Below, one piece after another: positions 39,177 through 59,760 of a DNA stretch of 62,256 nucleotides. The notes beneath the pieces were generated by a model. It worked only from the letters and a program-made list of their open reading frames with translations. It had not been told where the DNA came from and did not search any database. A program made the position numbers and the translations under genes. Source of the stretch: a virus. Its lineage: Duplodnaviria > Caudoviricetes. The stretch covers positions 1 to 62,256 of the IMG/VR virus record IMGVR_UViG_3300035701_000029; one strand, given 5' to 3'. Within the stretch, counting starts at the first letter, position 1. Every line of letters begins with the position of its first letter.

Positions 39177-39399
39177 TTTTCTTTTCTTGCCAAACTTCAG
39201 TACCTTTATATGCCACCTTAGCCCCAGCGTATATACCAAAACACCACTTCAAAAGGTCTACATAATTTTCTTGACTAAGAAACCCTAAAAATAGGGCACA
39301 ATGAAGGCCAACCAATATTAACCCAAATACAATAGTGGTTCTTAGTCCTTGTAGATTTTCAAACTTCAATAATTCTAGAACTTGTGCCAACAAAATCAC
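39157..39399 (-). CDS. Small two-TM membrane protein (holin-like)
   Basis: 80 aa, two hydrophobic segments and a basic C-terminus. Confidence 0.5.
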   Translation of the reverse strand: MILLAQVLELLKFENLQGLRTTIVFGLILVGLHCALFLGFLSQENYVDLLKWCFGIYAGAKVAYKGTEVWQEKKNVEKPQ

Positions 39400-40361: not shown

Positions 40362-40461
40362 TATCGTCTTCCTTCATAATAAGCTCAAAGCACATCCGAT
40401 TTAGTTCTTTAAGGAGGGCTAACTCCTTGTCGTTTAGCGTAAGTTCTAGGCTACTTGGCAT
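40339..40461 (-). CDS. Small hypothetical protein (40 aa; not in ORF track)
   Basis: MPSSLELTLNDKELALLKELNRMCFELIMKEDDIVLSGMP; overlaps the RNR stop and fills the gap. Confidence 0.4.
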   Translation of the reverse strand: MPSSLELTLNDKELALLKELNRMCFELIMKEDDIVLSGMP

Positions 40462-42398
40462 TTATCCCCCTCGCAAAATTCTTTCGCCCCGTCTAAGTAA
40501 CTCTCTTTGTTGTTAACTCTGATTTCCTTCAATTTTGCAGATCGAGACTTATATTCCGCCTCAGATATAGGAACATACGGAGCCATATCATATCCATGTT
40601 CTTCATAGGGCAAAAAAGATATCCCCTTTAGGCGGCTCTCATATAGAGATAGGGCCTTAGCGATATCCGGAGCTTCATTTGAACGGAATTTGACAGTACA
40701 ACTCACTTGATTGTCTGCCCAATAATGCTGCATCTGTGCTGCAAGCTCTAGCTGCTCCCACATAGAGACTTGAGCTACAGAACGGGTGAAGTTTCGTTCT
40801 CTAACGGGAAAAGCGATCACAGAAGAAGTCTTAGAGTATGTGTCCTGATGTGTGACTTCATAGCCAGCTTCTTTAAGAATTTTTATAAGCGGAGAATCGG
40901 CGTCAATTCTCATATGCCTAATATAGTACTCAGATTCGGGGTAATGCACACCTGGAGGAACTCCAGGCAATAGAGATACAGTCCCAGATGGCTTTACAGA
41001 CGTTACTTTAATGCTTTGGGGGATACATAGCCATCTAGAATATACCTTGTCTAGCTGTCGGATATATTTATAGCCCTCTTCGCACCAACGCAAATGTTCT
41101 CTAATGCCACGCATAGCAATAGCTTCTGCTATTCCACTCTGAGAAGTCCCAATTCGCCTATTGCGAAGCATAACCGCATTGCTTCTAGGGTTATGTGTTG
41201 GAACAAGAGTAACTGTCTTGGCATATAAATAGGCATATTTGAGGACTCTCATGTATTCATCCAAATCTTTGCATCTAGATGGATATGTCTCAACTAAACA
41301 ACAAAGTTCAAAAGACTCTAGGCTTTGTTCAATGCAGGGGTTTGCCCCTTCAACAAGCGCGTCTATGCCCTCTTGAAATCCGTCTACCATCCTCCCATAG
41401 TTGCGCATGTTGTGGAGCCAAATAAACCCTGGTTCTCCATTCTTAGCAATTTGCTCGCCAAGTTTATTGTAATCCATTCCAATTTCTGCCAACACACTAT
41501 TATTGCTAGTCCATCTATGATCGTTGAGTTCTGCTAAGTATTTAGTTGGATCTTTTAAAGAAGTAAAACCTTCATCATTGGGGTCTCCAAACATTACCTC
41601 AGCAGTTCTGCGAACATTGCCAGAAATAACACATTTGCCGATAACATTAAATATATCTACTATGGCAGCCGAGGAAATTTTTTCCCCTTCAACCGGTGTG
41701 AGGATTGTTGAGATGTCCGCAACCAGGGTTTCAAGCGGTTTATAGCCTGACGCCGTTCCACCCAACCCCTTAATCCTGGAACCTTTTTTCCTAATTTTTG
41801 TATAATCAATCTCCCGTGGGAAAGAACTCTTTCCAACGTAGGAGTTAAGAATTGTCTCAATTAAATCGACCCAGCCCTCTCGCGTATCTGCAACTACATA
41901 AACAAAGTCGCCAATTTTTGGCTTTCTAATCGTTACTAAACCAGATCCTCTAGCGTCTCCTCCTACTCCTACTCCTAACATAGACATATCCATAAGAAAA
42001 GAAAATGGAGAGGTAAAATCTGTGCTAAGTTCCTTAGTAGAAACAAATGCACAGTTGTTAAGAGGGGCACCACCTTTTTCATCTATAATCGAAGCCCCCA
42101 TGTTTTGTAATCCGCGTCCAGGAGGAGACCATTTGAACTCCCAAGCTAAACGATACATTTCTTGGGCAGAGTTTTGTGCCTTGTATGAATTCCATGGAAC
42201 TTTAAGAAGCTCGCAATGGCGTCTTTGTATTGTATAGACCCCTTCAACTACTCGCCTTAGTGTTTCCCAAAACTCTTCGTGACCACCCTCTTCTTTTTCT
42301 CTAGCATATTTGGTTAAAAATGTAATATAGCCTATTGGTCCCCATTCTGGTTGTTTACCACGAAATTTGGCAATAAAATCCTCTTTAAGCTGAAACAT
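40446..42398 (-). CDS. nrdJ: Class II (adenosylcobalamin-dependent) monomeric ribonucleotide reductase
   Basis: 'PPGRGL', 'NNCAFVST', 'GNVRRTAE', 'NPCIEQSLESFELCCLVE', 'TSVKPSGTVS', C-terminal 'FCEGDKC'. Confidence 0.95.
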   Translation of the reverse strand: MFQLKEDFIAKFRGKQPEWGPIGYITFLTKYAREKEEGGHEEFWETLRRVVEGVYTIQRRHCELLKVPWNSYKAQNSAQEMYRLAWEFKWSPPGRGLQNMGASIIDEKGGAPLNNCAFVSTKELSTDFTSPFSFLMDMSMLGVGVGGDARGSGLVTIRKPKIGDFVYVVADTREGWVDLIETILNSYVGKSSFPREIDYTKIRKKGSRIKGLGGTASGYKPLETLVADISTILTPVEGEKISSAAIVDIFNVIGKCVISGNVRRTAEVMFGDPNDEGFTSLKDPTKYLAELNDHRWTSNNSVLAEIGMDYNKLGEQIAKNGEPGFIWLHNMRNYGRMVDGFQEGIDALVEGANPCIEQSLESFELCCLVETYPSRCKDLDEYMRVLKYAYLYAKTVTLVPTHNPRSNAVMLRNRRIGTSQSGIAEAIAMRGIREHLRWCEEGYKYIRQLDKVYSRWLCIPQSIKVTSVKPSGTVSLLPGVPPGVHYPESEYYIRHMRIDADSPLIKILKEAGYEVTHQDTYSKTSSVIAFPVRERNFTRSVAQVSMWEQLELAAQMQHYWADNQVSCTVKFRSNEAPDIAKALSLYESRLKGISFLPYEEHGYDMAPYVPISEAEYKSRSAKLKEIRVNNKESYLDGAKEFCEGDKCQVA

Positions 42399-42418: not shown

Positions 42419-43027
42419 CTATATACGATTTTGAAAATAGCAGGACCAGTCCGCTGTTTCTAAAACAACGTAGCCCCTTTTAAATACTGGAAGGAAAACT
42501 ACTGTAGTATCTAGGAACATAAAAGAAGACCAAGTATTAAACCCATAGCCCCCCACAAAAACATATCTAAAAGACCTAGAATTAAGAAGGGCAAATAAAT
42601 CATCGTGAAAATCTAAACTACCGCTTTTTGCTAACTTACCAGGAACATTATGAAGTAGTAAAATATCCGCATCTTTAGGAGTATTAAACAAGTCATACTT
42701 CCTCATGTGTTTAATCGGTACTGATGCGCTTTCATAAAAATTAGGACTATATGTACCGGATACTCCAGCAACCTTTATCCTGTAGTCTAAGAGAATTTCT
42801 TTATTAACAAAACGCCAAGGCATTGCATCATCTTCAATGATTCTCTTCACCATGCCAAAATCTTCGTGTTTGCCCGCTATAAAATAAGTATCTACAGGAG
42901 GAACAAAACTCCTTTCTGTAATGCCAGTATTTCCAGCTATAAGGATAGAATCAGCATCAACAAAAGAAGCATCCTTAGCAAGGGCACGAAAATCTCCGAA
43001 TACTCCGGCGGTTACCAATAGTTTCAT
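42419..43027 (-). CDS. Metallophosphoesterase-like protein (divergent)
   Basis: 'ILIAGN', 'FIAGKHED', 'DILLLH' calcineurin-like pattern. Confidence 0.6.
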   Translation of the reverse strand: MKLLVTAGVFGDFRALAKDASFVDADSILIAGNTGITERSFVPPVDTYFIAGKHEDFGMVKRIIEDDAMPWRFVNKEILLDYRIKVAGVSGTYSPNFYESASVPIKHMRKYDLFNTPKDADILLLHNVPGKLAKSGSLDFHDDLFALLNSRSFRYVFVGGYGFNTWSSFMFLDTTVVFLPVFKRGYVVLETADWSCYFQNRI

Positions 43028-43028
43028 A

Positions 43029-43997
43029 TTAAGACATCTTTATTTTTGGGGTCATTAGTTCTTCAATACGAGGAATGACTTTATTGAAATCATAAGTATC
43101 AATAATGAACTGGCGGTTTGCCGCCTGTACTTTCCTCTTCTCTTCTAGACCGAGCGATTCAAACTCTTCAATAAGATTGACGCACTCTTGTACGGTATTC
43201 CAGGTATGAATATTGGGGTATGCCAAATCTGAGCCTAACCAATTTCTAACCAATGGGATAGCCCCGGTCAGCATAGACTCAGCAATCCCGTAATTGAATG
43301 ACTCAAATAGGGATGTGTTAAGCGAGTATTTCTTGTCTTTCAGCCACAAATTTACCTCTTTTTGATGGCCGTCAAAAACAATGTTGGGCGGAGAAACAGT
43401 CTCCATATATCTATCAAACATAACCTTGTATCTAAGGTCTTGATGTTCTCCGGCAGAGAATAACCGATGGGGTAGTTTCCTTTCCAACACTTTCTCCATA
43501 ATGGGGAAAATTAAGCTAGAGTCCTTCTTGTAATTAATATGCCCCAAGTATGCAATCTTATCTCTCTTTTCTAAAATATCGGCTAAGTCATAATCTTCTG
43601 TTTTAACTAGGTTTGGAATAATATGGGTCTCACAAGAATTTTGAATCTTATCCCAAAACCCCATAGTCCTTAAAATATCTTTAACCGATTCGTTGACTAA
43701 AATAAGATGGTCAACCTTACTCCAATCAGGCTGTCCGGGCATATCGGTAAATGCCTCATAGCTATGTAAGCGACAAATGACCTTGGCATGCCTAGTGGGG
43801 AAGTTAGCCAAAGCATACAACATCAGTTCGTTACACCATTCAAACCAAAGAATATCAGAAGTTTGAACACATTGAGCAAACTTAGCTTCATCCCCTCTGA
43901 TAAAGACATTGACGGACCCTTCACCGTGAATATCAGCAAAATGTTTTGCTATATCCGGAATGAAAGAGGGAGGATTGGCAAAAAACGTAATTTTCAT
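43029..43997 (-). CDS. Glycosyltransferase (GT-B, GT4-like)
   Basis: 'NTSLFESFNYGIAESMLTG' ExxxxxxxE motif. Confidence 0.85.
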   Translation of the reverse strand: MKITFFANPPSFIPDIAKHFADIHGEGSVNVFIRGDEAKFAQCVQTSDILWFEWCNELMLYALANFPTRHAKVICRLHSYEAFTDMPGQPDWSKVDHLILVNESVKDILRTMGFWDKIQNSCETHIIPNLVKTEDYDLADILEKRDKIAYLGHINYKKDSSLIFPIMEKVLERKLPHRLFSAGEHQDLRYKVMFDRYMETVSPPNIVFDGHQKEVNLWLKDKKYSLNTSLFESFNYGIAESMLTGAIPLVRNWLGSDLAYPNIHTWNTVQECVNLIEEFESLGLEEKRKVQAANRQFIIDTYDFNKVIPRIEELMTPKIKMS

Positions 43998-44833
43998 GAC
44001 TCTTTCCTTTCGTATTTTTGTATTGCATAAGCAGGACGTATAATATTCTTGTTTTCAGAAAACACTTCTAAAATTGCTGGAATTATTTCTTCTTCCATAT
44101 AAGAATAGCCCAAAGCTCTGGTGGGAATAAACTGATGTGCGCAAGCTATGACTACAAACCGAGGGTGATAGAATGTAATTTGGTCTTTAATATAGTTTAG
44201 AGTAAGATACCTCGTGCTTGTTAAAACTAAGCAATCTGGGTCCTTTCTTACTATATTTAATCCATTCATTTCGAAGTTATCTGTGATTAGGTTTTGATAA
44301 TCTTCAGAAATAGCAATTCTCTTGTTCCCAGCAGAAAGCTTCCTAATCATATTAATAACCTTTTTGTAATACTCACTTTCCCCAAATCTTAATAGGTCTT
44401 TACTAGGATCTACTTCTCCGCACATAGCTTCATAATATTCCACAGCAACTTCTTTAGAATAGCGAATGAATGGCTCATAGTTATGGATGTAGTTTAAATA
44501 GGGATGGTCAGATTGTTTAAACGTATAGCTATTTACTTCTGCGGGTTCAAATTTAGGTATGTTCCAAATAAGCCTAGGACTGAATAGGTCGTATGCAGCC
44601 CTAGCTAAATGAGCTTCAGAGTCTCCGAAGTCGAATCCATGTAGGAAAGTGAATTCGTCATTTTCGTATTCGCCCTTCTTGTCTTGCAATAGCTTACTAA
44701 GACTGTCTCTCGCAACGTCTAGCGTACTACTCTTGACTTGAAACGCTTTAATTGATCTGTTGAAGGGAGACAAAAAAAATGTCTTAACTGCTTCTTCCCC
44801 ATCGGTATCTAAAGAAGTTATAATCACTTCCAT
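43994..44833 (-). CDS. Hypothetical protein in the glycosylation cluster
   Basis: 279 aa, translationally coupled to neighbours. Confidence 0.6.
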   Translation of the reverse strand: MEVIITSLDTDGEEAVKTFFLSPFNRSIKAFQVKSSTLDVARDSLSKLLQDKKGEYENDEFTFLHGFDFGDSEAHLARAAYDLFSPRLIWNIPKFEPAEVNSYTFKQSDHPYLNYIHNYEPFIRYSKEVAVEYYEAMCGEVDPSKDLLRFGESEYYKKVINMIRKLSAGNKRIAISEDYQNLITDNFEMNGLNIVRKDPDCLVLTSTRYLTLNYIKDQITFYHPRFVVIACAHQFIPTRALGYSYMEEEIIPAILEVFSENKNIIRPAYAIQKYERKES

Positions 44834-45258
44834 TCCTTTCCACTATGCTTTAAGATCGAAGTAAAAATTGATTCCCAAGATGCCTCAGAGGCATCTTCAA
44901 GAAAAGAAAATGCTCGATCATCAACAAAGTATTTACATGGTGGTTTGGCATAGCCAAGATAAATTTCGTCAAACGGAAAATCATAGTCCTCTAGCCACTT
45001 AAGCATGGTGTGCATTAAAGTTCCATGCTTAAGATTAAATTCATTTTTAGTATAGGTATCTACTCTGCTAGTCCAAATAACTATATAATATCCCAGTTCT
45101 CTTAGATTAGACAGAACTCCCTCTGCTCCAGGCAATGGGGGGCCAATAATTCTTAGGTCGGTAGCAATAGGGGCACAGCAACCATCAAAATCAACTGCAA
45201 TCCTTCTATTAAACCCTCTTCCACAAACCAAAGATTTGTTTTTAGTATATAGCTTCAA
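44824..45258 (-). CDS. HAD-superfamily phosphatase
   Basis: 'IAVDFDG', 'IWTSR', 'KPPCKYFVDDR'. Likely TTG start at 45258 after GGAGG. Confidence 0.8.
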   Translation of the reverse strand: MKLYTKNKSLVCGRGFNRRIAVDFDGCCAPIATDLRIIGPPLPGAEGVLSNLRELGYYIVIWTSRVDTYTKNEFNLKHGTLMHTMLKWLEDYDFPFDEIYLGYAKPPCKYFVDDRAFSFLEDASEASWESIFTSILKHSGKEWK

Positions 45259-45877
45259 AATCAATCCTCCACTGAATATCATTGACGTTTGTTCTATCTG
45301 TATACGCCAATAAAACAGCATACTTTGCCCCACGAGGAGAGGGATGGTCACCGAAATCTATTTTATAGTAAGGATTTATCTTTTTTAGGTTTTCTATAAT
45401 TGTTTCTAAGCTAATGTCTTGCCAACACTTACCCTTAGCTTTCCATTCCGGGTTAGGAGCAACTCCAGCTTGGTTAATGTCGTCAATAAGAATGCTATGA
45501 GTTTTAATGGGATGGTTTCTAATCGCGGCTAGCTCTTCAATAATAGGAACTTCAACTCTACCCACAGTATACCCAGGTTCCCAGTGACCATCTAGCCAAA
45601 AAGTAATAGGTTTTTCAATTTTCTCAATTATCGACCATAAAACATCTGCACTATCCCCTAAATGCAAATGGACATTCTTATTTTCTTTATACCTCTCTTT
45701 AGCCATATCATAAAAATAAGAGTCTATTTCTATACTATGTATTTCCTTAAAGCCGCACTGCAAAGCCGTTAGTATCCCCTGCCCCTTAAAAGTGCCGGTT
45801 TCGATAAAGACATCATTACGGAATTGTAATAACAAATCCCATCTTAATGTGGTGTTTTCAAAAAATAAACTGGACAT
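45242..45877 (-). CDS. SAM-dependent methyltransferase-like protein
   Basis: 'FIETGTFKGQG', 'SIEID', 'GDSADVL', 'FWLDGH', 'ILIDD'. Confidence 0.75.
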   Translation of the reverse strand: MSSLFFENTTLRWDLLLQFRNDVFIETGTFKGQGILTALQCGFKEIHSIEIDSYFYDMAKERYKENKNVHLHLGDSADVLWSIIEKIEKPITFWLDGHWEPGYTVGRVEVPIIEELAAIRNHPIKTHSILIDDINQAGVAPNPEWKAKGKCWQDISLETIIENLKKINPYYKIDFGDHPSPRGAKYAVLLAYTDRTNVNDIQWRIDFEAIY

Positions 45878-46905
45878 TAAGAAGCCCCTTTCATTTTTAA
45901 GCACTCTTGGAATAAGGCTTCATATTGTTTACTAACAGCCTCTGGACTGTACAAGGCTTTAACCTTGTTTATTGCACCACGAGAAAAAATCTCGTATTCT
46001 TTTGGGTTGTTTATTAGAAAATGAACGGCACTTGCCAAATGAAACAATTCTTTTCTACAAATAATCCCTGCCCCTTGCGCTGCTTCTGGTCCAGCGCTAT
46101 CTTGCCATGTTATTATGGGAATACCTTGAGACATGGCTTCTACAATACAATATTCAAATCCCGCTTCCCATGTTGGGTTAATGCATATATCGAGTCTGTT
46201 AAGCGCGGCAAGTTTATCTTTTTGTTCTCCCTCTACAACAAAATAATTTGGTATTTCAACCTTTTTCATCTCTTCATAATATTGTCGGTTAAATTCATGC
46301 CCCATTAGTAAAAACTTAAGAAAATGCCGATATTCTGCCATAATTTTGGCTACCCCATATATAACATGGTGGAGCTTATCAATTTCATACCTAGCAAGCC
46401 TTCCTACAACAATCTGTCTGTGTTCTTCACTAGGGAATTGCCTTGGCTCTGCTATCGGCAATGTGCATATATTAGGGATAACTAAAACCTTCCTATCCTT
46501 ACTCTTGCTAGCGGTGTATTCACTTTGCCCAACCGTAAAAGCACACATATCTTTGGGAATATGAGAAGGTCTCGGGCAATGAAGATTTTCTATGACGGGA
46601 ATCTTTTTGACATAGGCTTCCGTTACCCAATTGGGATTATCTCCACCCCCCGTCTGCTTCACAATTATGTCGATTTTATGATAATTCAGAAGCGCGCTAA
46701 AACCTGGATAATTTTCATTCTCGGCTATAATGCTGTCGCAACCAGCAGCTTCAAATTCTTTTTTAATGTCGGTATCTAACCAACAGTACCCAATAGCATA
46801 ATGCTTATACTGTGGAGTAGTAGCCTTAACTAGTTCTAGGGTGGCTTGAGCTATGCCTCCAAGAGCCCACCCATTAATGACATGTAATATCCTTGGCCTA
46901 AACAA
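45877..46905 (-). CDS. Glycosyltransferase (GT4-like)
   Basis: 'ILHVINGWALGGI', 'VGRLAR', 'EAGFEYCIVEAMSQGIPII'. Likely TTG start at 46905. Confidence 0.9.
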   Translation of the reverse strand: MFRPRILHVINGWALGGIAQATLELVKATTPQYKHYAIGYCWLDTDIKKEFEAAGCDSIIAENENYPGFSALLNYHKIDIIVKQTGGGDNPNWVTEAYVKKIPVIENLHCPRPSHIPKDMCAFTVGQSEYTASKSKDRKVLVIPNICTLPIAEPRQFPSEEHRQIVVGRLARYEIDKLHHVIYGVAKIMAEYRHFLKFLLMGHEFNRQYYEEMKKVEIPNYFVVEGEQKDKLAALNRLDICINPTWEAGFEYCIVEAMSQGIPIITWQDSAGPEAAQGAGIICRKELFHLASAVHFLINNPKEYEIFSRGAINKVKALYSPEAVSKQYEALFQECLKMKGAS

Positions 46906-47917
46906 TGTTTTCCCTCCGTAAGAACTCATACAGTTCAAGCGCCCATCTTTCATTGCTCCTATACTTAGCACAAAAGTCCCGAGAACCTTCAGTATATATA
47001 TTAATAAATTGCGGCAATTCGAATATCATTTCAATCTTGCGGCTGAGATCATATACATTAAAAGGTTCTGCATATATGCCAAAATCTCCATATATGCGTC
47101 TAGCTTCTGGCCAATCTGCTGCTATGACCGGTTTTCCAATTGATATCCCCTCAAGACCACATTGAGATACAATCCTAGGGTTATCGGGGAAAGTAATAAT
47201 TGCAGAAGACTCATGGTAGTGCTTATATTTATCCATTTCTGAACAATTTGGTATTTGTTCGTAGGGGACCTTAAGAAATGAAGCAAGCGAACTCAAATCT
47301 GGTCCAACTCCCAAAACTAGAAGCTTAATTGAGGTGTCGGCCATTGAAATGGCCTCTAAGATCATATGCACCCCTTTATCTGGACGAACTATCCCCGAAT
47401 AACAAAGCTGTTTCTTAATTTGGAAATCTCTTGGGTTAAGATTGAGTGTGTTAACAGGGTGAAACAACGGACATGTAGGAATTGACAACCCCTGAAGCTC
47501 GTCTATATCAATTTTCTTCCATGAAGTCAAGAAATCTAAATAAGATAGTACTCCCCCATATTGCGACCACATTTTTTGAATATGTGGTAAGTAGTTTCTT
47601 GTTTTAGGGATAAAAGTATGGGAAGGTAAATCTAAGATGTTGCATCCAACTTTTTTTCCAGTGTGATCTTTGAGATGCAACAAAAGCGGAATTGCAGAAA
47701 TATCAAATCCAAAGAAAATATCATATTTTGAGATATCGGCTGTATCCGATGTTATAATATTCACTTTCGGTAGATCAATCTCAAACGGTATAGTTGGATT
47801 CCCCTCAAATAGGTAGGCTACATCTATGTCGAAGTATTCTTCTAGAGCCTTTGCTACTGGATAGACCTGCCCTGGAAAAGCAGCAAAAAACAAGCACATT
47901 TTTAACCGTTCGGCCAT
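46898..47917 (-). CDS. Glycosyltransferase (GT4-like)
   Basis: 'YSGIVRPDKGVH', 'GLEGISIGKPVIAAD'. Confidence 0.85.
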   Translation of the reverse strand: MAERLKMCLFFAAFPGQVYPVAKALEEYFDIDVAYLFEGNPTIPFEIDLPKVNIITSDTADISKYDIFFGFDISAIPLLLHLKDHTGKKVGCNILDLPSHTFIPKTRNYLPHIQKMWSQYGGVLSYLDFLTSWKKIDIDELQGLSIPTCPLFHPVNTLNLNPRDFQIKKQLCYSGIVRPDKGVHMILEAISMADTSIKLLVLGVGPDLSSLASFLKVPYEQIPNCSEMDKYKHYHESSAIITFPDNPRIVSQCGLEGISIGKPVIAADWPEARRIYGDFGIYAEPFNVYDLSRKIEMIFELPQFINIYTEGSRDFCAKYRSNERWALELYEFLRRENIV

Positions 47918-48984
47918 ATGATCTTCCTTAGTGATTGAACAAAAACTTGTTTGCTGTACCTGCTATTAAGAAACTCTTTCATTTCAACTATGTCTGTTTC
48001 AAATGTAAGAGCCTTCTTCATTTGGGCAGTAAATTCTTCGGGAGTCCTAGCAAACAGTATGTGTTTGTCTAGGTACATCTCTCTGTTAAGCGGATTATCC
48101 CATACTACTGAAGTCTTTCCACACCACATGCACTCAGCTATAGTTCCAGAGCCACAATATGACCCTCTTTCGCCAGAAATACCAAATTTAGCCCCAGCGA
48201 TAAAGTTATACTTCTCTGTTTCGGTTATCTCTGACAAGATTCTTAAAGTGATGCCATGTTTAGCTGCTAGATTCTTGCATTTTACTTCATCTGGGCCACT
48301 ACCTACAAAATATAGGTCTAGTTCATCTTTAAGGTCTTTGAACATCTCGATAATTTCAGCTTGGCCCTTATGTTCATTAATACTGGCACACGAAATAGCG
48401 TAGTCCCTAGCCCCCTTATATGGTTTTGTGGGTTCTTCAAAAAATACTGGGTAGAAGACTTTACCGACTGGCATCTTATTAAGGTAAAAATAACTATTGT
48501 AATAGGTAGGTGTCTTAACTGCTATAAGATCCCAGTTCCCCCTACTTAGCTCTCGTTTGATCGTATCCCAGCTAGCTATATAATCGGAATAGTAATGATG
48601 CTTGCCACTATAGTAGTCCATAGGGATATCTAACAACATTACGTACTTCCTAATATTATCTATCTTAGATGCTATGGCTCTATACACATTTTCAGCAGAA
48701 GTTAAAACTGTGTGGTCTGTCGCCAACAAAACAACGTCTTTACCCTTACATCTTTCTATAAGATCCGGACTAACTACTAAATTACCGCTCTGTGAATCTA
48801 TCCTATTAAAAATGATTTCATCAGAAAGGCTTTCTGATGTTTTTAATTTCCGAAAAGAAAGCCTCGCTGGGAAAAGACAAATAGGGACAGTTTCAATGTC
48901 CATTTGTTTTTTAATTTCTTCTGATACAAGAAGGACAAAGTGTTCGGTTATTTTTGTAACCAAGATAATTACTTTATTGGGCAT
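47902..48984 (-). CDS. Glycosyltransferase (GT4-like)
   Basis: 'EHKGQ', 'VGSGP', 'IAECMWCGK'. Confidence 0.8.
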   Translation of the reverse strand: MPNKVIILVTKITEHFVLLVSEEIKKQMDIETVPICLFPARLSFRKLKTSESLSDEIIFNRIDSQSGNLVVSPDLIERCKGKDVVLLATDHTVLTSAENVYRAIASKIDNIRKYVMLLDIPMDYYSGKHHYYSDYIASWDTIKRELSRGNWDLIAVKTPTYYNSYFYLNKMPVGKVFYPVFFEEPTKPYKGARDYAISCASINEHKGQAEIIEMFKDLKDELDLYFVGSGPDEVKCKNLAAKHGITLRILSEITETEKYNFIAGAKFGISGERGSYCGSGTIAECMWCGKTSVVWDNPLNREMYLDKHILFARTPEEFTAQMKKALTFETDIVEMKEFLNSRYSKQVFVQSLRKIIWPNG

Positions 48985-50059
48985 CGTTGACTACCTTGCA
49001 AATTAAGTTAATATGCTCTTTTGTTAGAGAAATTGAAGATGGTAAACAAATGGTACGTTGGAATAAAGATATTGCATTTCCTTGACCAACTGTTTGTAGA
49101 TGTTTAGTAAACGGCAAGCTACTCATCGGTTTAAAAATGTACCTATAATCAATAAGATTGAGATCAAGTGCCCTCATAGCATCATCTCTTTTGTGCTTAT
49201 TAGGAAAAGTAAATGCATTTAACCAAAAATTAGGCTTTGCTCCAAGGACATGGGCCTGTGGATATGCTGGCGGGTTGATCCCTATCTCGTAAGACTTTCT
49301 GATTGTTGTTTTGTACTGTAGGAAGAATTCAATCTTTTTCAACTGTGAACGCCCCAGCGCTGCGGACATATGAGTCATTCTGTAGTTATACCCAGCTTTT
49401 GCATGATCGTATTCTTTACCACCTGGATAATGACTGACTAAATTGTACGCCTCTTCGTACTGCCAATCTGGGACAACTAAAGCTCCGCCTTCACCCGTAG
49501 TAATGATCTTATTAGCGAAAAAACTGAAAACCCCGTAGTCTCCCCTTGTCCCACAAAATCTTCCTCTAGCATCTTTGCTTCCAAGAGACTCGGCTGCATC
49601 TTCAATGACCACAATGTTCTTAGATTTGACATACTGTTCGAAATTGTCCGAAAATTCAAATGGTGTGCCAAGCAAATCCACAGTAATAATATGAGAAATA
49701 TCTTTGTCTTTGAGATATTGCCAATTCATATTCCAATCAGAACTAGTAATATCACAAAGAACAATCTTGTTTGTTTCTTGGAACAAAGCATTAAGAGTTG
49801 CAGCAAAAGTTATATCTGGAATTGCAACATATTCGGCGTTTCTAACTCCCGACAGAACATAGGCGATATGAAGAGCGGCACTACCGCTCGAAGTTAAAAC
49901 AATTCGTTTGTTAAGCTGCGCAAGACCTAAATAGTCTTCCAGATCGTGAGCAAATCGTACATACTCTGGCCCATGATGCGAAACCCATCCCATTTTCAAC
50001 CCATCGGACACTGCTTTAACATCTTGTTCTGTAATACAGGGCTCTAGTACTTTAATCAT
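48974..50059 (-). CDS. DegT/DnrJ/EryC1/StrS PLP-dependent sugar aminotransferase (perosamine synthase-like)
   Basis: 'SSGSAALH', 'IEDAAESLG', 'SFFANKIITTGEGG', 'GYNYRM', 'CLPSS'. Confidence 0.95.
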   Translation of the reverse strand: MIKVLEPCITEQDVKAVSDGLKMGWVSHHGPEYVRFAHDLEDYLGLAQLNKRIVLTSSGSAALHIAYVLSGVRNAEYVAIPDITFAATLNALFQETNKIVLCDITSSDWNMNWQYLKDKDISHIITVDLLGTPFEFSDNFEQYVKSKNIVVIEDAAESLGSKDARGRFCGTRGDYGVFSFFANKIITTGEGGALVVPDWQYEEAYNLVSHYPGGKEYDHAKAGYNYRMTHMSAALGRSQLKKIEFFLQYKTTIRKSYEIGINPPAYPQAHVLGAKPNFWLNAFTFPNKHKRDDAMRALDLNLIDYRYIFKPMSSLPFTKHLQTVGQGNAISLFQRTICLPSSISLTKEHINLICKVVNDAQ

Positions 50060-51132
50060 ACATACTCCTCAAAAATTTTAGTGAGTCTTTCGCCACTTGC
50101 CCTGGGGGAGAAATAATCGTCTACTCTTTTGTGCGCCCTGCGCCTTAAAGAAAAAAGATCAACCTCTCTATTAAGAACTTGAAGTATTTTAGCCTGTAGG
50201 TCTTCTACATCTTTAGGTTTTGCGTATATGGCACAATCCTCGTATTCTTCTCTATTGATAGGATAATCAAACACAACTGCCGGAACTCCCAAGGCCATAG
50301 CTTCTAGGGGAGCAATGGCTCCCATCCATGGGTTACATTGTGGGTAGCAAAGTAGCCTAGAGTTTTTAACAATTTCATGTTTCTTAAGTTCTGGCGCTTT
50401 GGGGAAATATTCAAATCGTTTGCCCAAATAAGATTTTGCTAAAGCTACTTGTTCCGCTTCCTGAGATCCACCAACTGCTACTGCTTTATAGCCAATATCA
50501 ATTCCATATAGGGCTTCTATTAAGTATCGACCCCCCTTAAATTCTTCAAACCTATGAGAAGAAGAGACATATGGCTCAACATCAACCATCTCCGAATTAT
50601 TTATTTTGTAAATCATGTCTAAAGTAGCAACTACGAAGAAAGACTTCTTAGCTGGCTTCTGAGTTCTCTTAGTATATTCTTCGGCAGCAACCGAACTAAT
50701 AAAAATCAAACTATCTAACTCTTCTCCAATTTTTAAATACCTATAAAACCTGTTAGAATAGTCTTGATTGTAGTTTGGTTGGCCTGGATCAATAACATGA
50801 ACTGGAAAATCTAAGAAAATACAAAATGCTGGAACTCCATAAAATTTTTTAAGTGACGCAACATATGGCACAACAGATTGATCTATTCCAATGATAACAT
50901 CTGGTTTTTCTATAGACTCGGGAATAGTAGTATAGACCCCATGAGGAACTTTTATAATGTCTTCGCTAATTAAGGGAGCTGGTATCCACCCGTTACAAAA
51001 AATTCCATGATCTATATCGTGAAGAATCTTCACTTCATGGCCCACTTCTTTTAACCCAGAAGCAATTGCTAATTCCTGATGGCCAACAAATAAAGTGCCG
51101 TTAGCTATGCACAGAACTTTCATTACACACAT
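50056..51132 (-). CDS. Glycosyltransferase (GT4-like), paralogue of 51101..52183
   Basis: 'LEAMALGVPAVVFD'; shares 'HQEL.IA.GLK..G.EV' and 'G.DQSV' with its neighbour. Confidence 0.85.
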   Translation of the reverse strand: MCVMKVLCIANGTLFVGHQELAIASGLKEVGHEVKILHDIDHGIFCNGWIPAPLISEDIIKVPHGVYTTIPESIEKPDVIIGIDQSVVPYVASLKKFYGVPAFCIFLDFPVHVIDPGQPNYNQDYSNRFYRYLKIGEELDSLIFISSVAAEEYTKRTQKPAKKSFFVVATLDMIYKINNSEMVDVEPYVSSSHRFEEFKGGRYLIEALYGIDIGYKAVAVGGSQEAEQVALAKSYLGKRFEYFPKAPELKKHEIVKNSRLLCYPQCNPWMGAIAPLEAMALGVPAVVFDYPINREEYEDCAIYAKPKDVEDLQAKILQVLNREVDLFSLRRRAHKRVDDYFSPRASGERLTKIFEEYV

Positions 51133-52183
51133 GCTCCAAAATTTGAGTTAGCGCTTTTCCTGCTTGTTCTGGTGTAAACATCAATTGAACCCGTTCTTTG
51201 CCCCTAGCCTTTAGGGTTTCGAGATCAATTTCTTTGTTTAACACCAATAAAAGCTTTTCTTGTAAGTCGTCTATATTTTTAGGGGCTGTATATACAACAG
51301 AGTCACCAAAAAACTCTTTGTACAAAGGGAAGTCAGAGCAAACTACAGGAGTCCCCATATACAAGGCCTCAAGAACAGCCATCCCCCCTGACCATCCACA
51401 TAAATTGGGGTAGCAAAGAACTTTCGCACTTTTCAATAATCTCCACTTATTAGCTTCTGCAAGTTTTGGATATGGGTGGAATTTATCCGCAAGCATTCTT
51501 TGAGCAAACGCTATAACTTGGGGCTCAATAAACCCCCCTGCAAAAGCAGCGCAATAGTCTACCATCATTTCACTAAGAGCTTTAATAAGGTACTCTGTTC
51601 CATTGTAGCTAAAGAATTTATGAGTAGAAGCTATATAGGGAACGTCAATATCGAATTTTTTACCATCAATTGCATTTGTTGTGCAAAGAGGGTAGTAAAA
51701 ATAGTATGGGGGCTTGCGCAAGTTATTAGCAGCCCTAAGCGCCATGGTTTTACTGGTGAAAATTATACCTCCACTCATTTCGTTTGCGTAATTAATGGCG
51801 GTGTAGTAGTTAGCTGAATATTCTGGATCATAGTCCTGCGGAGACCCCTCATCAATCATATGACGTGGATAATCAAGCATAATGCAACTAGCAGGGCAAT
51901 GATACTCGCTCTCATATGCCCTAGTCAAAGCAGACACACTCTGGTCTAGCCCCAAACAGCAATCTACCCCCTTAATCCCCTTCTCAACTTCGAAATCTCC
52001 CGGCTTTTTAATTATGATCTCTTTAGATAAGAGAGGAGGGGGGATGTATCCCTTGTTAAATTCGCTACATTGTGGGTCATGAAGAATAACCACTTCGTTT
52101 CCAGCTTGCTTAAGCCCCGCTGCTATATGCAACTCTTGATGGGCCATTGATAAAAACCCATTACCAATTAATAGTACCTTCAT
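51101..52183 (-). CDS. Glycosyltransferase (GT4-like), paralogue of 50056..51132
   Basis: 'VLEALYMGTPVVCSD'. Confidence 0.85.
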   Translation of the reverse strand: MKVLLIGNGFLSMAHQELHIAAGLKQAGNEVVILHDPQCSEFNKGYIPPPLLSKEIIIKKPGDFEVEKGIKGVDCCLGLDQSVSALTRAYESEYHCPASCIMLDYPRHMIDEGSPQDYDPEYSANYYTAINYANEMSGGIIFTSKTMALRAANNLRKPPYYFYYPLCTTNAIDGKKFDIDVPYIASTHKFFSYNGTEYLIKALSEMMVDYCAAFAGGFIEPQVIAFAQRMLADKFHPYPKLAEANKWRLLKSAKVLCYPNLCGWSGGMAVLEALYMGTPVVCSDFPLYKEFFGDSVVYTAPKNIDDLQEKLLLVLNKEIDLETLKARGKERVQLMFTPEQAGKALTQILEHVCNESSVHS

Positions 52184-52404
52184 TTATCCACCCAAACAAT
52201 TCCCGAAAAGAACAACCATTCTATGTCTGATCTTTTAAGCTTTACCTTGCGGTTATCGGCGAAGTATAGAAAACATTCTAGGCAGAGTTTTTTTTCAACT
52301 AGGCTGGCCGGAACAGACATGGCCCAAATAATATCGTTGATCTTATAGCTTGCTCTCCTGATTTTCTTGCAATAGCTACAGCGTTTTTCCATATTCTCAT
52401 CCAC
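52180..52404 (-). CDS. Small Cys-rich (Zn-binding) protein
   Basis: CSYC...LCLEC. Confidence 0.6.
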   Translation of the reverse strand: MDENMEKRCSYCKKIRRASYKINDIIWAMSVPASLVEKKLCLECFLYFADNRKVKLKRSDIEWLFFSGIVWVDK

Positions 52405-53363
52405 TAGGTTAGCTCCATGTGTTTAAAAATCTTTTCAAAGCTATGCTTAAAGGTAAAAGAAGATAAGACCGTGTTCATTCCCCTATCTGCAATCTTTTTC
52501 CTAAGATCCGGTTTGTCTCGGTAAAACTCTATTTTATCGGCACACTCTTCGTTAGAACTATATAGAATGATATTCCTTCCGTCTTGAAAGAAATCTGTAT
52601 GGCCCTTAATTCTGTTGGTTATTAAGAACCCACCAGCAGCCATAATTCTATAGTCCCTAGCGCTCCAAGAGTATTTAATATTTGGCCATCCGCTATGTCC
52701 AAGGTTTATAATGGAATTAGCAGAGACTACGTTGTTGCCCCAATTGCCAGTAATGCTTTCTCCAACGTGTCGGCCTTTCAGATCAACTGTCCCATAGATT
52801 TTTCCATAAATTTTAATAAGATCATCAAACTTTTCAACCAAGTACTTTAGCCAATCTGCCCTATCTAGGTGAACAAACCCTCTTTGTTTATACCATTGAG
52901 AATCTTCTACTATTTGGCCAACAAAAGTACACCCATAGTAGTTATTAGTCTTAATTGGATAGTGAGACCACGGATCGCAGCCTTCTGGAACCCAGTAACC
53001 TTTAGGAAAAGCCTTGGCGTGATCTGGGGAGATGGTGAAAAAGTAGTCTAGCTTATCTAACCCTGGGCGTAGAGAACTTACTGGAACTTCTACGCCGCCA
53101 AATGTAACATCGAAGATCCAACCGCATTTTATGGGGCACTCTATCCAATCAATGAAGTGTTCTAACTCATTAAGATATAGAATAAGACAAACATCTGGCT
53201 TTATTGTATTGATAAAATCTACGGTTCGCTCAATTGAATGATTCCGATGATCGGAGAATGAAAAATCTATTTCTAGGGCGTGTTCTCTGGCAAATTCATG
53301 TAGTCCGTTACGTAAAAAAATGTTAGACTGCCCATCATTGGGCATAGACAAATGAACTTTCAT
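52404..53363 (-). CDS. CgeB-like glycosyltransferase (GT-B)
   Basis: 'TFVG', 'WSARDYRIMAAGGFLIT', 'RKKIADRG' pattern of CgeB / glycosyl transferase group 1-like proteins. Confidence 0.8.
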   Translation of the reverse strand: MKVHLSMPNDGQSNIFLRNGLHEFAREHALEIDFSFSDHRNHSIERTVDFINTIKPDVCLILYLNELEHFIDWIECPIKCGWIFDVTFGGVEVPVSSLRPGLDKLDYFFTISPDHAKAFPKGYWVPEGCDPWSHYPIKTNNYYGCTFVGQIVEDSQWYKQRGFVHLDRADWLKYLVEKFDDLIKIYGKIYGTVDLKGRHVGESITGNWGNNVVSANSIINLGHSGWPNIKYSWSARDYRIMAAGGFLITNRIKGHTDFFQDGRNIILYSSNEECADKIEFYRDKPDLRKKIADRGMNTVLSSFTFKHSFEKIFKHMELT

Positions 53364-53621
53364 TTAAAATGACCTGTCATATTCTGCCCAACCAGCCGAT
53401 TCAAGCTCTTCCTTCAATTCTTGGGCTAGCTTCTTAATGTGGCTCCTTGTTGACGAAGTTACATCCATCCCACCCTGAAGCTTAACGATTTTGTCTTCTA
53501 GCCTACGATTTTTAGCCTCAAGGCCCTTAATTACTCGCTGAAGCTCTTGAATAGCTTCTTTGGCCATGTCGTCTAGTTGCTTGGGGTCAACAGAAACCTC
53601 AATTTTGGTTTTCATATACAA
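53364..53621 (-). CDS. Coiled-coil hypothetical protein
   Basis: 85 aa heptad pattern. Confidence 0.6.
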   Translation of the reverse strand: MYMKTKIEVSVDPKQLDDMAKEAIQELQRVIKGLEAKNRRLEDKIVKLQGGMDVTSSTRSHIKKLAQELKEELESAGWAEYDRSF

Positions 53622-54568
53622 CTCCGTAAAACCCTATTACAGATTTCGTATCTAAGTTCCATTTCGGCCTTCGCAACATCTCTAAAATTTTGACCGTATT
53701 GTTCTTGACCTTGGTTAGACGCATGAATCTGTTCCGAAATCGAAGTTGCTATACTTCTTGGAGAGTCGTTTCTCTTAACACATAAGGAAGATGGGACCCA
53801 AGATAAACTATTGCTAACTAAACATGGTACATGACACATGGCATGTTCATAGGCCGCAATATTAAATGAGTCACTATAGGTAACCTGCAACCCCAATCTA
53901 GAACTAGCGACAATCCTTGTTTTTTCTTCTTCGGTAATTGAGGCAACAGAGTTAGACCAATTGTCAATACCAAACATTTTTTGAAAATAATCAAAGGGTT
54001 CATATGCCATCATATAGCTGTAAACTGGCTCTTTTACATGGAAGTCTCTTTGGGCAATTTTAATAGCGGCTAACTGGTTCATAAAGTTCCTATGAGCCCT
54101 AAGATTGTTCCCAATCAATAAAATCCCACTTCTCTTATGTATAGGGGTGTATATTCCTTCAAAATCTGAGACAACCGGTAGAAAAACAATTCTTTTGTCC
54201 GCAAAAGTCTCCGAAATTCCTTTATCGGAACAAAAAATATAATCTAGTTTGTGCGATCTGTCCTCCAACATAGACAAAAGGTGGCCAAATAATGAAATTT
54301 CGCCATTACATGATGCTTGCCCTAACGGAGAACAGAACAAATACCCAATTTTTACTCTAGATGGTAGGTTTTGTATCCACTCATAGACCTCTTGCGGTAA
54401 ATAATTGCCAAAAATCACTAAGTCGGCATGTTTGATCTCCTCATAAACATAATCCATTGAAGAGATACCACCAATTTTATGCTTTGTTAGGCCAGTTTTC
54501 TCCAAAGAGCGCATGGTGGTGTTCAACCCGTTGTGTGGATCACTAGATTTGTTTATGGTATAAATCAT
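53612..54568 (-). CDS. Glycosyltransferase-like protein
   Basis: 'LGLQVTYSDSFNIAAYEHAMCHVPCLVS' degenerate GT-B C-terminal motif. Confidence 0.65.
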   Translation of the reverse strand: MIYTINKSSDPHNGLNTTMRSLEKTGLTKHKIGGISSMDYVYEEIKHADLVIFGNYLPQEVYEWIQNLPSRVKIGYLFCSPLGQASCNGEISLFGHLLSMLEDRSHKLDYIFCSDKGISETFADKRIVFLPVVSDFEGIYTPIHKRSGILLIGNNLRAHRNFMNQLAAIKIAQRDFHVKEPVYSYMMAYEPFDYFQKMFGIDNWSNSVASITEEEKTRIVASSRLGLQVTYSDSFNIAAYEHAMCHVPCLVSNSLSWVPSSLCVKRNDSPRSIATSISEQIHASNQGQEQYGQNFRDVAKAEMELRYEICNRVLRSCI

Positions 54569-54783
54569 TTGCTACTCTTTGATGGAAAAAACAATGAAGA
54601 AAGAAAGTAAATAGTGAGAAAAACACCAAATGCCTGGTACGGGGTGATTGCTTTTTGGCCAAACACCTCAACCATCACCCAATTCCACAGTGTATGTGTT
54701 ATCCAAGACCCCAATAATATATAAACTATGATAAAAATGGCAGCAGTAACTCCAATAAGAACCCATTCCCATATTTTAATCAT
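54565..54783 (-). CDS. Small membrane protein
   Basis: 72 aa, two hydrophobic segments. Confidence 0.65.
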   Translation of the reverse strand: MIKIWEWVLIGVTAAIFIIVYILLGSWITHTLWNWVMVEVFGQKAITPYQAFGVFLTIYFLSSLFFPSKSSK

Positions 54784-57319: not shown

Positions 57320-58231
57320 TTACCATTCCATCACTACGCTTGCAGAAGTCCATCCGGCCCCAACACCAGTAAGTAAGATTTTATCCCCTTCTACAATTCT
57401 CTGTTTGTCAAGAGCATCATTAAGGGCTATTGGAATACAAGCAGAACTTGTATTGGCATACCTATCCATAACAGTGTGAATTTTTTCAAACGGAATGCCC
57501 AAAGCTTTCGCGGCGTCTTTAAGCACTCCAATCCCAGGTTGATGAGGAATGACTAAATCAATATCATCTGCGGTCAAGTTTGCTCTTCTTAGACATTCAG
57601 TAGCACTCGCATAGATATGTTCCACTGCGAGTTGATAAACCCACTTCCCCTTCATGTGCCAAAAGTTATCTTTTTCGATAGTCCAAGCTTCGGCTCCGCT
57701 CCCATCTGATGCCCAATGTGTTGCTAGAATACCTCTACCATTAGATAAGACAACTGCTCCTGCTCCATCACCGAAGAAAACGCAGTTCCTATCTCCCCAA
57801 TCGGTATATTTAGATAGTGTATCTGCTCCGACCACTAAAATATTCCTATACCGTTTGCTCTCCATCATCTCACAAGAAGCGACTAGGGCATAGATAAAAC
57901 TAGCACACACCGCAGTCATATCAAACGCTGGTGGTCCGTTAAGCCCCAATGCGTCTTGAATGTAACAAGCTGTTGCAGGAGCACGTTTATCTGGGGTTGT
58001 CGTTCCAACAATAATTAAATCAATTTCGGTAGCCTTTGCTTCTATGATCGCTTTTGCCGCTGCGTTAAGAGCAAGGCTTCGAGTAGTTTCTTCCACACAA
58101 ATATGACGAGACTTGATGTTTAAAGTCTTCGCCGCCCAAGGAGGGTCAACATAGTGACCCAATTCTTTCAATTGCTCGTTAGAAACACTCCAAGCGGGGA
58201 CACACATCCCAACTCCCATGATTTTAGGCAT
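57320..58231 (-). CDS. fabH: Beta-ketoacyl-ACP synthase III (FabH family)
   Basis: Catalytic triad motifs 'AVCASF', 'IPHQ', 'ANTSSACIP'; also 'FGDGAGAVV' and 'GVGAGWT'. Confidence 0.93.
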   Translation of the reverse strand: MPKIMGVGMCVPAWSVSNEQLKELGHYVDPPWAAKTLNIKSRHICVEETTRSLALNAAAKAIIEAKATEIDLIIVGTTTPDKRAPATACYIQDALGLNGPPAFDMTAVCASFIYALVASCEMMESKRYRNILVVGADTLSKYTDWGDRNCVFFGDGAGAVVLSNGRGILATHWASDGSGAEAWTIEKDNFWHMKGKWVYQLAVEHIYASATECLRRANLTADDIDLVIPHQPGIGVLKDAAKALGIPFEKIHTVMDRYANTSSACIPIALNDALDKQRIVEGDKILLTGVGAGWTSASVVMEW

Positions 58232-59398: not shown

Positions 59399-59760
59399 GC
59401 TCTGTTAGAGCTTATTACATTATACGGCAAGGAGGAGCATTTTGTAAGATTTCCGTGCATGAATCACCTAGACGTTACCTTTTCTAGCTCCTGGGAAAAA
59501 TTTACCCAAGTAGGGTTAAATCCTAGACCCGAAATTGGGGATGACTAAGACACTCTCTACTGACTCGTTCGCTAACTCATTGTCTAGCAATAACGTAGTA
59601 TCTATTGTTCTAGAAATCTGTTGAGAGAAGCTGAGCTTTTCGCTCTGCTGAAGCTGAAAGTAGCTGTGAGCTTTACGAATACTCTATACTGCACATATGA
59701 GCAGATTGAAAGTAGTTTCTCAAGCAATACTGCACATTTGAACAGTATGCGAAAAAGCTG

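Follow-up and report, generated by a model that had tools for sequence, protein, structure and literature searches.

A minus-strand cluster of the tailed-phage contig IMGVR_UViG_3300035701_000029 (Duplodnaviria; Caudoviricetes), at positions 42419-54568, encodes eight GT-B glycosyltransferases (GTs) and an aminotransferase of the DegT family. We analyzed the entire contig of 62256 bp (the window) by computation alone, and the results favor, on balance, a role of this cluster in cytoplasmic O-glycosylation of a protein, most likely a phage virion protein. A sequence-only reading of the same DNA had left phage DNA, the virion and the host surface equally open as carriers of the glycan. Protein, and above all the virion, is now clearly better supported than a host structure, which we consider unlikely, or DNA, which we consider highly unlikely. 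The multi-sugar glycan pathway with an amino-sugar step that had also been proposed was borne out by the eight GT-B enzymes and the DegT protein.

Homologues of the core glycosyltransferase

To locate homologues of one of the eight enzymes, here called the core GT, we scanned three collections (metagenome, genome and viral contigs) with an alignment of five core-GT orthologues. Flagellin genes in the recovered loci were called by phmmer, and a few additional ones by Pfam. In bacterial genome contigs, flagellin was present in 24 of the 56 core-GT loci (20 by phmmer; L125, L130, L132 and L146 by Pfam), and FliW was found by Pfam at one further locus (L137). As there are few flagellin genes in a multi-Mb genome, we estimate roughly that a random gene lies within 8-10 kb of one in about 1 in 100 cases; the observed frequency therefore represents strong enrichment. 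Among the best 13 genome loci (E <= 1e-50), 11 had flagellin, and the others were L123, where a cut-off gene occupies the flagellin position, and L129, on a 4-kb contig.

The top genome homologues (phmmer E 1e-61 to 3e-65, covering query residues 2-316) were proteins of 532-548 aa with N-terminal TPR repeats and a GT4 domain, encoded in the gene order FlgI, FlgJ-like, FlgK, flagellin, FliW, GT and GT2-TPR. The record names of the genome loci were mostly those of Ignavibacteria, Zixibacteria and Thermotogae metagenome-assembled genomes (MAGs), with Clostridium sporogenes, Thermovorax and Marinitoga as isolates. Two Clostridium loci had GT, SDR and GT2-TPR genes, and flagellin was not seen in their 8-kb flanks. 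At another locus (L083, 3003-6635), a bacterial protein of 1210 aa contains TPR, core-GT-like GT4, GT2 and CgeB-like parts in one chain; two GT types encoded by separate genes in the phage cluster are thus joined in a single polypeptide elsewhere.

A second context emerged from the metagenome contigs. Flagellin occurred in 22 of their 79 core-GT loci (21 by phmmer and L043 by Pfam), and a further 8 were phage head modules with terminase, SPP1-type portal, GT, methyltransferase and capsid genes; 4 belonged to the window's own family, two of which were G001 and G003, relatives that were also compared as whole records (below). Similarly, the viral contigs yielded 25 core-GT loci, 5 of the window's family, and at 11 of the 20 non-family loci the GT lay between the portal (or a minor head gene) and the capsid gene. 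The viral and metagenome loci lie partly on the same contigs (e.g., L186 and L097), and their counts are thus not independent. In a FastTree tree of 126 GT domains, the window GT fell into a clade with 99% local support that comprised 13 flagellar, 5 family and 2 other rows, a placement that is provisional because the window GT is a long branch. Searching 50,697 deposited phage records with the core GT, the only one of the eight GTs so used, gave no tblastn match at E <= 1e-3.

FlmG of Caulobacter is a cytoplasmic flagellin O-glycosyltransferase built of TPR and GT-B parts; it is needed and sufficient for the modification, and its TPR half binds flagellin (PMC7591256). Flagellin glycan islands, such as the viosamine island of P. 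syringae with its KAS III enzyme VioS, join aminotransferase, methyltransferase and KAS III functions to tailor an amino sugar (PMC3927599). The phage cluster resembles such islands in that its core GT aligns over its full length with TPR-GT proteins encoded beside flagellin and FliW, in its soluble, presumably cytoplasmic GT-B enzymes, and in having DegT, methyltransferase and KAS III-type enzymes that could serve an amino sugar. It differs in several respects: the core GT (322 aa) has no TPR domain, no flagellin family was detected by Pfam in the window, a degenerate phosphoesterase-like protein is the constant neighbor, and eight GTs stand beside a reductase gene. The likeness to FlmG is one of architecture and concerns the bacterial homologues; the phage enzyme may work like a flagellin-glycosylation system yet, without TPR and flagellin, is not a member of one.

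The flagellar neighborhoods might also be taken to mean that the enzymes modify a host structure, be it flagellin, wall teichoic acid or some other glycoconjugate of the envelope, so that superinfection is blocked or host sugar pools are redirected. Host takeover is a common interpretation of sugar islands in large phages, and the PHROG category of phrog_2170 and phrog_1238 is 'moron, auxiliary metabolic gene and host takeover'; moreover, GT-B enzymes that glycosylate teichoic acid work on the cytoplasmic side and need no dedicated flippase. We nevertheless regard this explanation as unlikely, since the phage GT lacks the flagellin-binding TPR domain of FlmG, eight GTs are many for the decoration of an existing polymer, and another group of phages encodes a homologue within its head module. 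In addition, the Pfam and PHROG scans of the window revealed neither an integrase nor another sign of lysogeny, and a lytic phage gains little from altering new flagella or walls.

Several observations instead favor a protein target, most simply one of the virion. In that other phage group the GT is part of the head module, one of the relatives (G004) has GTs directly past its capsid gene, and capsid and tail-tube subunits of mycobacteriophages bear glycans (Freeman et al. 2023, as cited in PMC12619734). In mycobacteriophages too, phage-encoded soluble GTs are thought to glycosylate the phage's own capsid and tail proteins. The cluster described here is larger, has an amino-sugar step and would glycosylate by prediction; its core GT belongs to a different lineage than the mycobacteriophage GTs, given the absence of a tblastn match among the deposited phage records.

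Conserved gene pair and variable sugar islands in relatives

The five relatives compared as whole records were G001 (103 kb), G002 (111 kb), G003 (117 kb), G004 (88 kb) and G005 (58 kb), of which G001 has terminal repeats. With capsid proteins 39-49% identical to that of the window, they are distant relatives; GT genes were present in all five. In four of them (G001, G002, G003 and G005), and also at the metagenome locus L046, a pair formed by the phosphoesterase-like gene and the core-GT gene adjoins the reductase gene, and the four genomes share the order clamp, HNH, HD, 160-aa gene, reductase, phosphoesterase-like gene and core GT. That the pair keeps this genomic position in phages whose capsids share only 46-49% identity with that of the window speaks for a fixed role.

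By contrast, the sugar genes that follow the pair differ in content in every relative. There is one extra GT4 in G001. G002, which is closest to the window, has two DegT genes, a hexapeptide acyltransferase, three GT4, a CgeB-like GT and a 328-aa GT. G003 has a UDP-GlcNAc 2-epimerase, an SDR and a GT2; G005 has two 2-epimerases, an SDR, a methyltransferase, a DegT, a GT2, an LpxD-like acyltransferase and a PIG-L deacetylase. A relative found in the metagenome scan (L046/L047/L048, also L178) carries a DegT, two GT4, a CgeB-like GT and a 306-aa GT. G004 is without the pair and has a separate sugar-nucleotide cluster of a C-methyltransferase, FdtA, an SDR, an acyltransferase, two DegT genes and a CgeB-like GT; immediately past its capsid gene lie a GT2 gene and a gene for a 798-aa protein with two GT domains. 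Because the reductase-adjacent island differs in every relative, selection would be diversifying the structure of the glycan, a pattern that would suit an exposed surface. The clade-specific glycosylation clusters of Megavirinae fibrils are similar by description in combining rare amino sugars of bacterial type with GTs, in varying among relatives and in decorating the particle surface, although these are giant viruses of eukaryotes (PMC10117803).

The first member of the pair had been read as a phosphoesterase. A fold relation to Metallophos/Dbr1 is supported by its orthologues: the one in G001 matches Metallophos PF00149 (E 1.3e-8), and a profile of five sequences matches Dbr1 (E 2.7e-5). 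The enzymatic part of the claim fared less well. The metal-binding motifs of Metallophos are DxH, GD, GNH[DE], H and GH, and the window protein has no Pfam match of its own; since the motif positions vary among the five orthologues, and are thus degenerate, the protein may not be an enzyme at all. An AlphaFold model was unusable (predicted local distance difference test, pLDDT, 49.6), and a complex prediction with the core GT scored 0.00 ('no answer'), which carries no weight either way. As a constant neighbor, the protein is a candidate for aiming the TPR-less phage GT at its acceptor.

The constancy of this pair also bears on whether the product is a soluble or lipid-bound glycoconjugate (a glycolipid or a small-molecule glycoside), or whether the island is a recently captured bacterial cassette without a fixed role. 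GT4 enzymes do include glycolipid and thiol-sugar synthases, and there were sub-threshold NCBIfam matches to BshA and GlcN-PG synthase; a FabH-like enzyme is encoded upstream, and 31 of the 56 genome loci of the core GT have no informative context. The phosphoesterase-like and GT pair at its constant position, and the homologue contexts that are informative, which indicate protein targets, make such an explanation distinctly improbable.

Enzymes of the cluster

The genes of the cluster and its surroundings are listed in Table 1. Of the six GT4-like, one CgeB-like and one degenerate GT genes recognized in the sequence-only reading, all held up. GT4 (a) to (e) exceeded the curated Pfam cut-offs (Glycos_transf_1 or Glyco_trans_1_4), and the sixth, the core GT, was assigned through orthologues in four relatives, which pass Pfam (E 1.7e-9 to 5.7e-15), and a five-sequence profile that matches solved GT4 enzymes (best E 7.7e-5). 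For the eighth GT, the ESM Atlas model of an identical sequence matched GT clusters, many of them viral, with template modeling (TM) scores of 0.80-0.84, and we predict that it is a glycosyltransferase.

Table 1. Features of the glycosylation cluster and of other genes in the window
Feature	Position	Strand	Evidence
Capsid protein, HK97-type	27229-28143
Beta clamp	36707-37849		Confirmed by Pfam
DUF1599 ('nucleotide modification associated domain') candidate	38063-38494		Sub-threshold: E 0.0078, 17 bits vs cut-off 25
HD protein	38475-39239		Confirmed by Pfam
Ribonucleotide reductase, nrdJ-type	40446..42398	-	phrog_367 E 4.3e-121; PF17975 E 9.5e-23
Phosphoesterase-like protein, 202 aa	42419..43027	-	Relation to Metallophos/Dbr1 via orthologues; no own Pfam match
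Core GT4-type glycosyltransferase, 322 aa	43029..43997	-	PF13692 E 0.012 alone; orthologues and profile
Near-orphan protein, 279 aa	43994..44833	-	Two Rossmann-like alpha/beta halves in model
HAD-type phosphatase, 175 aa as called	44824..45351	-	phrog_1238 E 4e-16
Methyltransferase-like protein, 220 aa	45242..45904	-	Erm/KsgA S-adenosylmethionine (SAM)-binding region E 0.004-0.007
GT4 (a)	45877..46971	-	PF13692 E 2.2e-13
GT4 (b)	46898..47917	-	PF13692 E 2.8e-6, 28.1 bits vs cut-off 27
GT4 (c)	47902..48984	-	PF00534 E 2.7e-8
DegT-family nucleoside diphosphate (NDP)-sugar aminotransferase	48974..50059	-	PF01041 E 2.7e-62
GT4 (d)	50056..51132	-	PF00534 E 7.9e-15
GT4 (e)	51101..52183	-	PF00534 E 6.2e-15
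Small open reading frame (ORF), 74 aa	52180..52404	-	No family match; L046 has a small ORF at the corresponding place
CgeB-like GT (Glyco_trans_1_2)	52404..53363	-	PF13524 E 1.9e-19; orthologues in G002, L046
Small coiled-coil ORF, 85 aa	53364..53621	-	Coiled-coil matches, sub-threshold only
Eighth GT, GT-B fold	53612..54568	-	No Pfam match; orthologues in G002, L046/L048
FabH/KAS III-like enzyme	57320..58231	-	PF08541 E 1.8e-28; PF08545 E 1.4e-25

The DegT aminotransferase and the HAD phosphatase, both named in the earlier reading, were likewise recovered, the phosphatase with fair support. Residues 8-357 of the DegT protein align with positions 2-359 of the 360-position PF01041 profile, that is, over the full length. 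Its best NCBIfam matches were the LegC and PseC families, all under the equivalog cut-offs, so that the substrate sugar is not assignable; the nearest solved structures were 7b0m (titled 'Sugar aminotransferase'), perosamine synthetases and 1o61. By these similarities the enzyme is probably of the 4-aminotransferase type. The phosphatase matched the TIGR01689 capsule-biosynthesis phosphatase family with E 1.8e-8, under the family cut-off, and its real start is probably further downstream than called.

A methyltransferase had also been named. The resemblance of the 220-aa protein to the SAM-binding region of Erm/KsgA stands, at a level (Table 1) that makes it at best a weakly supported methyltransferase. 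A homologue (E 5e-16) is encoded at the head-module phage locus L064, two genes past the core-GT homologue, where it adjoins a gene for a methyltransferase-GT2 fusion. The near-orphan 279-aa protein had 7 matches among 1.84 billion representatives and no sequence match in the PDB. Its model (pLDDT 75) gave best Foldseek TM scores of <=0.39, mostly to SAM methyltransferases, a weak resemblance to class I methyltransferases.

All proteins of the cluster are predicted to be soluble, with isoelectric points of 5.3-7.6. None is a polytopic membrane protein, and the small ORFs show a hydrophobic segment at one site only, 54565-54783. Pfam scans of the window, which covered 70 ORFs, detected no family of flippases or transporters, polymerases or ligases, or initiating phosphoglycosyltransferases, and flippase, polymerase and initiating transferase were equally missing from the Pfam results for the sugar islands of the five relatives. 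Neither the window nor these islands have the makeup of a Wzx/Wzy- or ABC-dependent surface polysaccharide locus.

The tight coupling of the genes and their adjacency to nrdJ were confirmed: every gene overlaps or abuts the next, and nrdJ starts 20 bp beyond the end of the cluster. For these two reasons the genes are probably expressed together. Promoter and terminator scans of the window gave no richer results than shuffled sequences, and the operon structure accordingly rests on gene spacing and on two strong upstream hairpins (56523-56498 and 55501-55487), the strongest terminator-like hairpins on the minus strand, which lie between the FabH-like gene and the cluster. Of the further neighbors that had been listed, the HD protein and the clamp were confirmed, whereas the DUF1599 match stayed below threshold.

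The FabH-like gene, 2.7 kb upstream of the cluster, looks intact, with Cys, His and Asn present in its translation. By analogy with flagellin islands, its product is a possible acyl donor for the amino sugar. No acyl carrier protein was recognized near this gene; an adjacent ORF of 83 aa was considered for that role and rejected by eye, being Cys-rich and without a family match.

Proposed pathway and candidate acceptors

In the pathway that we propose, the cluster genes would be co-expressed before or during assembly. DegT would aminate an NDP-4-keto-6-deoxy sugar supplied by the host; no dehydratase is encoded here. Tailoring of the amino sugar would fall to the methyltransferase-like protein and the HAD phosphatase, perhaps with the FabH-like enzyme from upstream. 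The core GT is the candidate priming enzyme, which would transfer the first sugar onto Ser/Thr of the acceptor, and the seven remaining soluble GT-B enzymes would lengthen the chain. The chain built directly on the protein would be a hetero-oligosaccharide that could reach about eight sugars, the tailored amino sugar among them.

Possible acceptors, or surface proteins, are four small Ser/Thr-rich proteins of the head module (23487-25338 and 25947-26615), with 23-26% Ser+Thr. Three of them (23487-25338) are tandem paralogues of 203-212 aa that all start with MAD.KISAL. The four are encoded just downstream of the capsid gene and have no family match and no homologue in the five relatives.

A number of results weigh against virion protein glycosylation. 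No acceptor was identified, and the sequon-like motif [S/T]-[G/A]-x-T is not enriched in the structural proteins (20 observed versus 18.0 from shuffles). The cluster lies outside the structural module, beside nrdJ, HD, the clamp and the sub-threshold DUF1599 match, and is probably co-transcribed with nucleotide-metabolism genes. In the homologue survey, 46 of the 79 metagenome loci and 31 of the 56 genome loci had neither a flagellar nor a phage-head context in the available DNA, many of them being short. The flagellin role of the bacterial homologues is itself suggested by neighborhood and FlmG-like architecture, and the window GT is a long branch in a tree made with FastTree only. Finally, because the contig is incomplete, genes that prepare DNA bases for sugars could sit in its missing part.

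If the proposed assignment is correct, two or more groups of phages have turned a GT lineage known from flagellar loci toward virions, and the core GT with its degenerate phosphoesterase-like neighbor would be a defined pair for studying how a GT is retargeted after loss of TPR. The 'glyco-type' island at a constant genome position would then be a viral counterpart of the O-antigen locus, and the variable glycan coat would matter for how stable the phage is, how it adsorbs and how it is recognized.

The proposed DNA modification

The sequence-only reading had proposed that a glycan added to phage DNA in GG/CC contexts would explain a GG/CC-free early island as a bare starter cassette. The island itself is real. 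It spans 1193 bp (59539-60732) in which neither strand has GG or CC at about 43% GC, while the next-longest such stretch in the window has 161 bp. A divergent promoter-like region falls within it, together with two early genes on the plus strand; neither product (191 aa and 66 aa) contains any Gly, Pro or Trp. A homologue of the 191-aa protein, 71% identical and from another contig of 3.6 kb (P0100), likewise lacks the three residues, indicating that the trait is kept in nearer relatives.

The proposed coupling of the GT cluster to this island was not supported. GTs are present in 5/5 relatives and the island in 0/5; their longest GG/CC-free stretches are 119-229 bp, at 29-36% GC. Around the core-GT loci, within a reach of 10 kb from the GT, there was no GG/CC-free stretch of >250 bp at any of the 79 metagenome loci and none of >173 bp at the 25 viral loci.

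Palindrome counts gave a mixed picture. Four palindromes had zero copies in the window: TGATCA (15.7 expected), AGATCT (14.3), AACGTT (11.0) and CAGCTG (8.2). The complete avoidance of the first three argues against a blanket modification of any base. Among 6-bp palindromes, those without GG/CC occurred 56 times where 105.3 were expected, a stronger avoidance than in GC-matched palindromes that contain GG/CC, with 61 observed and 74.1 expected; by hand calculation the contrast has a binomial p of ~0.02, on few sites and with the host not identified. The weaker avoidance of GG/CC palindromes is compatible with protection in GG/CC contexts and in this fits the earlier idea. Separately, GATC has 0 copies in G003, where 346 are expected.

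Known DNA sugar pathways begin at a base made by a thymidylate synthase homologue or with a C5 methyltransferase and a TET-type dioxygenase; intact pathways are usually clustered, their glycans have one to three sugars, and context-specific sugar hypermodification exists, at GpC, via a C5 methyltransferase and 5mYOX (bioRxiv 10.1101/2023.12.21.572611). In addition, 5-hydroxycytosine (5hoC) that is 'mono- and poly-arabinosylated' is described in phage DNA (PMC13326640). As had been stated in the sequence-only reading, the Pfam scans of the window contain no base-activating enzyme of the thymidylate-synthase or TET/JBP type. The search for such enzymes elsewhere in the genome that it called for was run in the five relatives and was largely negative: thymidylate synthase (PF00303) was found in 0/5, Tet_JBP (PF12851) in 0/5 and a C5 methyltransferase (PF00145) in 1/5, and genes of a 7-deazaguanine pathway occurred in 2/5, in another module.

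That module is in G001 (15210-23846; L012/L013) and G002 (28526-34887) and comprises FolE, QueD, a radical-SAM gene and a DpdA-like gene; the FolE-QueD-QueE-QueC pathway with DpdA was not detected in the window by Pfam. The DpdA-like protein (394-400 aa) has a weak TGT match, and in both genomes a GT4 gene lies directly upstream. Identity between G001 and G002 across this GT4 and DpdA-like pair is 52% and 59%. The module looks like a 7-deazaguanine system, and a sugar-bearing 7-deazaguanine is a possibility there. None of the window GTs is an orthologue of the DpdA-adjacent GT4, and G003 has the replication genes and the sugar island with the deazaguanine module absent. Besides the GT4 and the DpdA-like gene (399 aa in this genome), the replication module of G001 holds four DNA methyltransferase genes (one D12-class N6A, three N6_N4) and a GT2. 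The Pfam scan of this genome covered 84 of 141 ORFs of >=60 aa, within single 20-kb pieces; five that cross a piece border and many of the small ones lay outside it, and most of the island was scanned separately. A PHROG label of 'DNA methyltransferase' on 29638-30744 was set aside, the homologues lying between portal and capsid genes and showing no methyltransferase Pfam match.

In its position the cluster is like the DNA hypermodification clusters of T-even phages, of 5mYOX/ThyS-linked systems and of polyarabinosyl-5hoC phages, which also have phage GT-B enzymes near replication or nucleotide genes, sometimes with epimerases and a second GT. Those clusters adjoin a thymidylate synthase homologue or a C5 methyltransferase with 5mYOX, and neither arrangement was found here or in the five relatives. 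A glycan on phage DNA, perhaps in GG/CC contexts and with the early island left bare, thus has on its side the adjacency to nrdJ, HD, the clamp and a weak DUF1599 match, the reality of the island with its Gly/Pro/Trp-free homologue, the palindrome contrast, the GpC precedent and the deazaguanine-type module with its adjacent GT4. It is highly unlikely all the same. Besides the shortage of base-activating enzymes, G003 keeps its sugar island without the deazaguanine module, eight GTs exceed what glycans reaching three sugars or arabinosylation would call for in the sources cited, the GTs are acidic to neutral, the island does not accompany the GTs among relatives, three palindromes are wholly absent, and the nearest homologues of the core GT are in protein-glycosylation contexts. 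Slightly less probable still is the full scheme, in which a large and strain-specific oligosaccharide in GG/CC contexts depends on base activation (e.g., a 7-deazaguanine module with a GT of its own, as in two relatives) encoded in the missing part of the genome and a 1.2-kb bare cassette lets the host polymerase start infection. As a practical rule, in the absence of a base-activating enzyme, many GT clusters that phages carry close to replication genes are better not taken for DNA modification.

One further compositional feature lies at the end of the contig. The final, cut-off ORF (from 61866; region 61871-62256) has 58% GC and frequent GG, with no CC in the last 257 bp and no TA for 274 bp; it is strand-asymmetric, unlike the symmetric GG/CC-free island.

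Genome context

The record is one contig that the window spans completely, with no terminal repeat and without overlap of its ends. Minus-strand genes run from position 2 to 59460 and plus-strand genes from about 59850 onward. Pfam and PHROG identified tailed-phage genes (a 2133-aa tape measure, portal, large terminase (TerL) and a sigma-70-type factor) and, for replication and nucleotide metabolism, the beta clamp, an HNH protein, the HD protein and a class II ribonucleotide reductase. The same scans found no DNA polymerase, helicase or primase in the window, and the genome is therefore incomplete. There are no tRNA genes in the window.

By megablast, deposited or named phages included no near-identical or close relative, and the best TerL identity, to Bacillus siphoviruses, was <=31%. 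Scans of viral contigs with single proteins (TerL, the 191-aa island protein and the CgeB-like GT) gave no match. The capsid protein was more informative: a large protein collection held 88 homologues of it, with top identities of 92% and 65-71%, and a capsid-alignment search of IMG/VR gave 11 loci, from whose records the five relatives were taken. Contigs of the 65-71%-identical homologues are 33-46 kb long, and those of the capsid family reach 130 kb. One 48%-identical homologue (P0041) carries the label of a Candidatus Hodarchaeales MAG. We rejected this archaeon as host, since the family genes are of bacterial type; the label is probably a binning artefact because the genes of this phage and of the relatives include those for sigma-70, beta clamp, RecA, peptide deformylase, RecU and SpoVG.

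The window reductase is of a different, shorter nrdJ type than those of the relatives, being 21-24% identical to the G001 and G005 versions and without a BLAST match to the reductases of G002 and G003. In G003 (L042, 9851-12799) and G005 (L041, 4237-7203), the reductase genes contain an intein bearing an HNH endonuclease domain.

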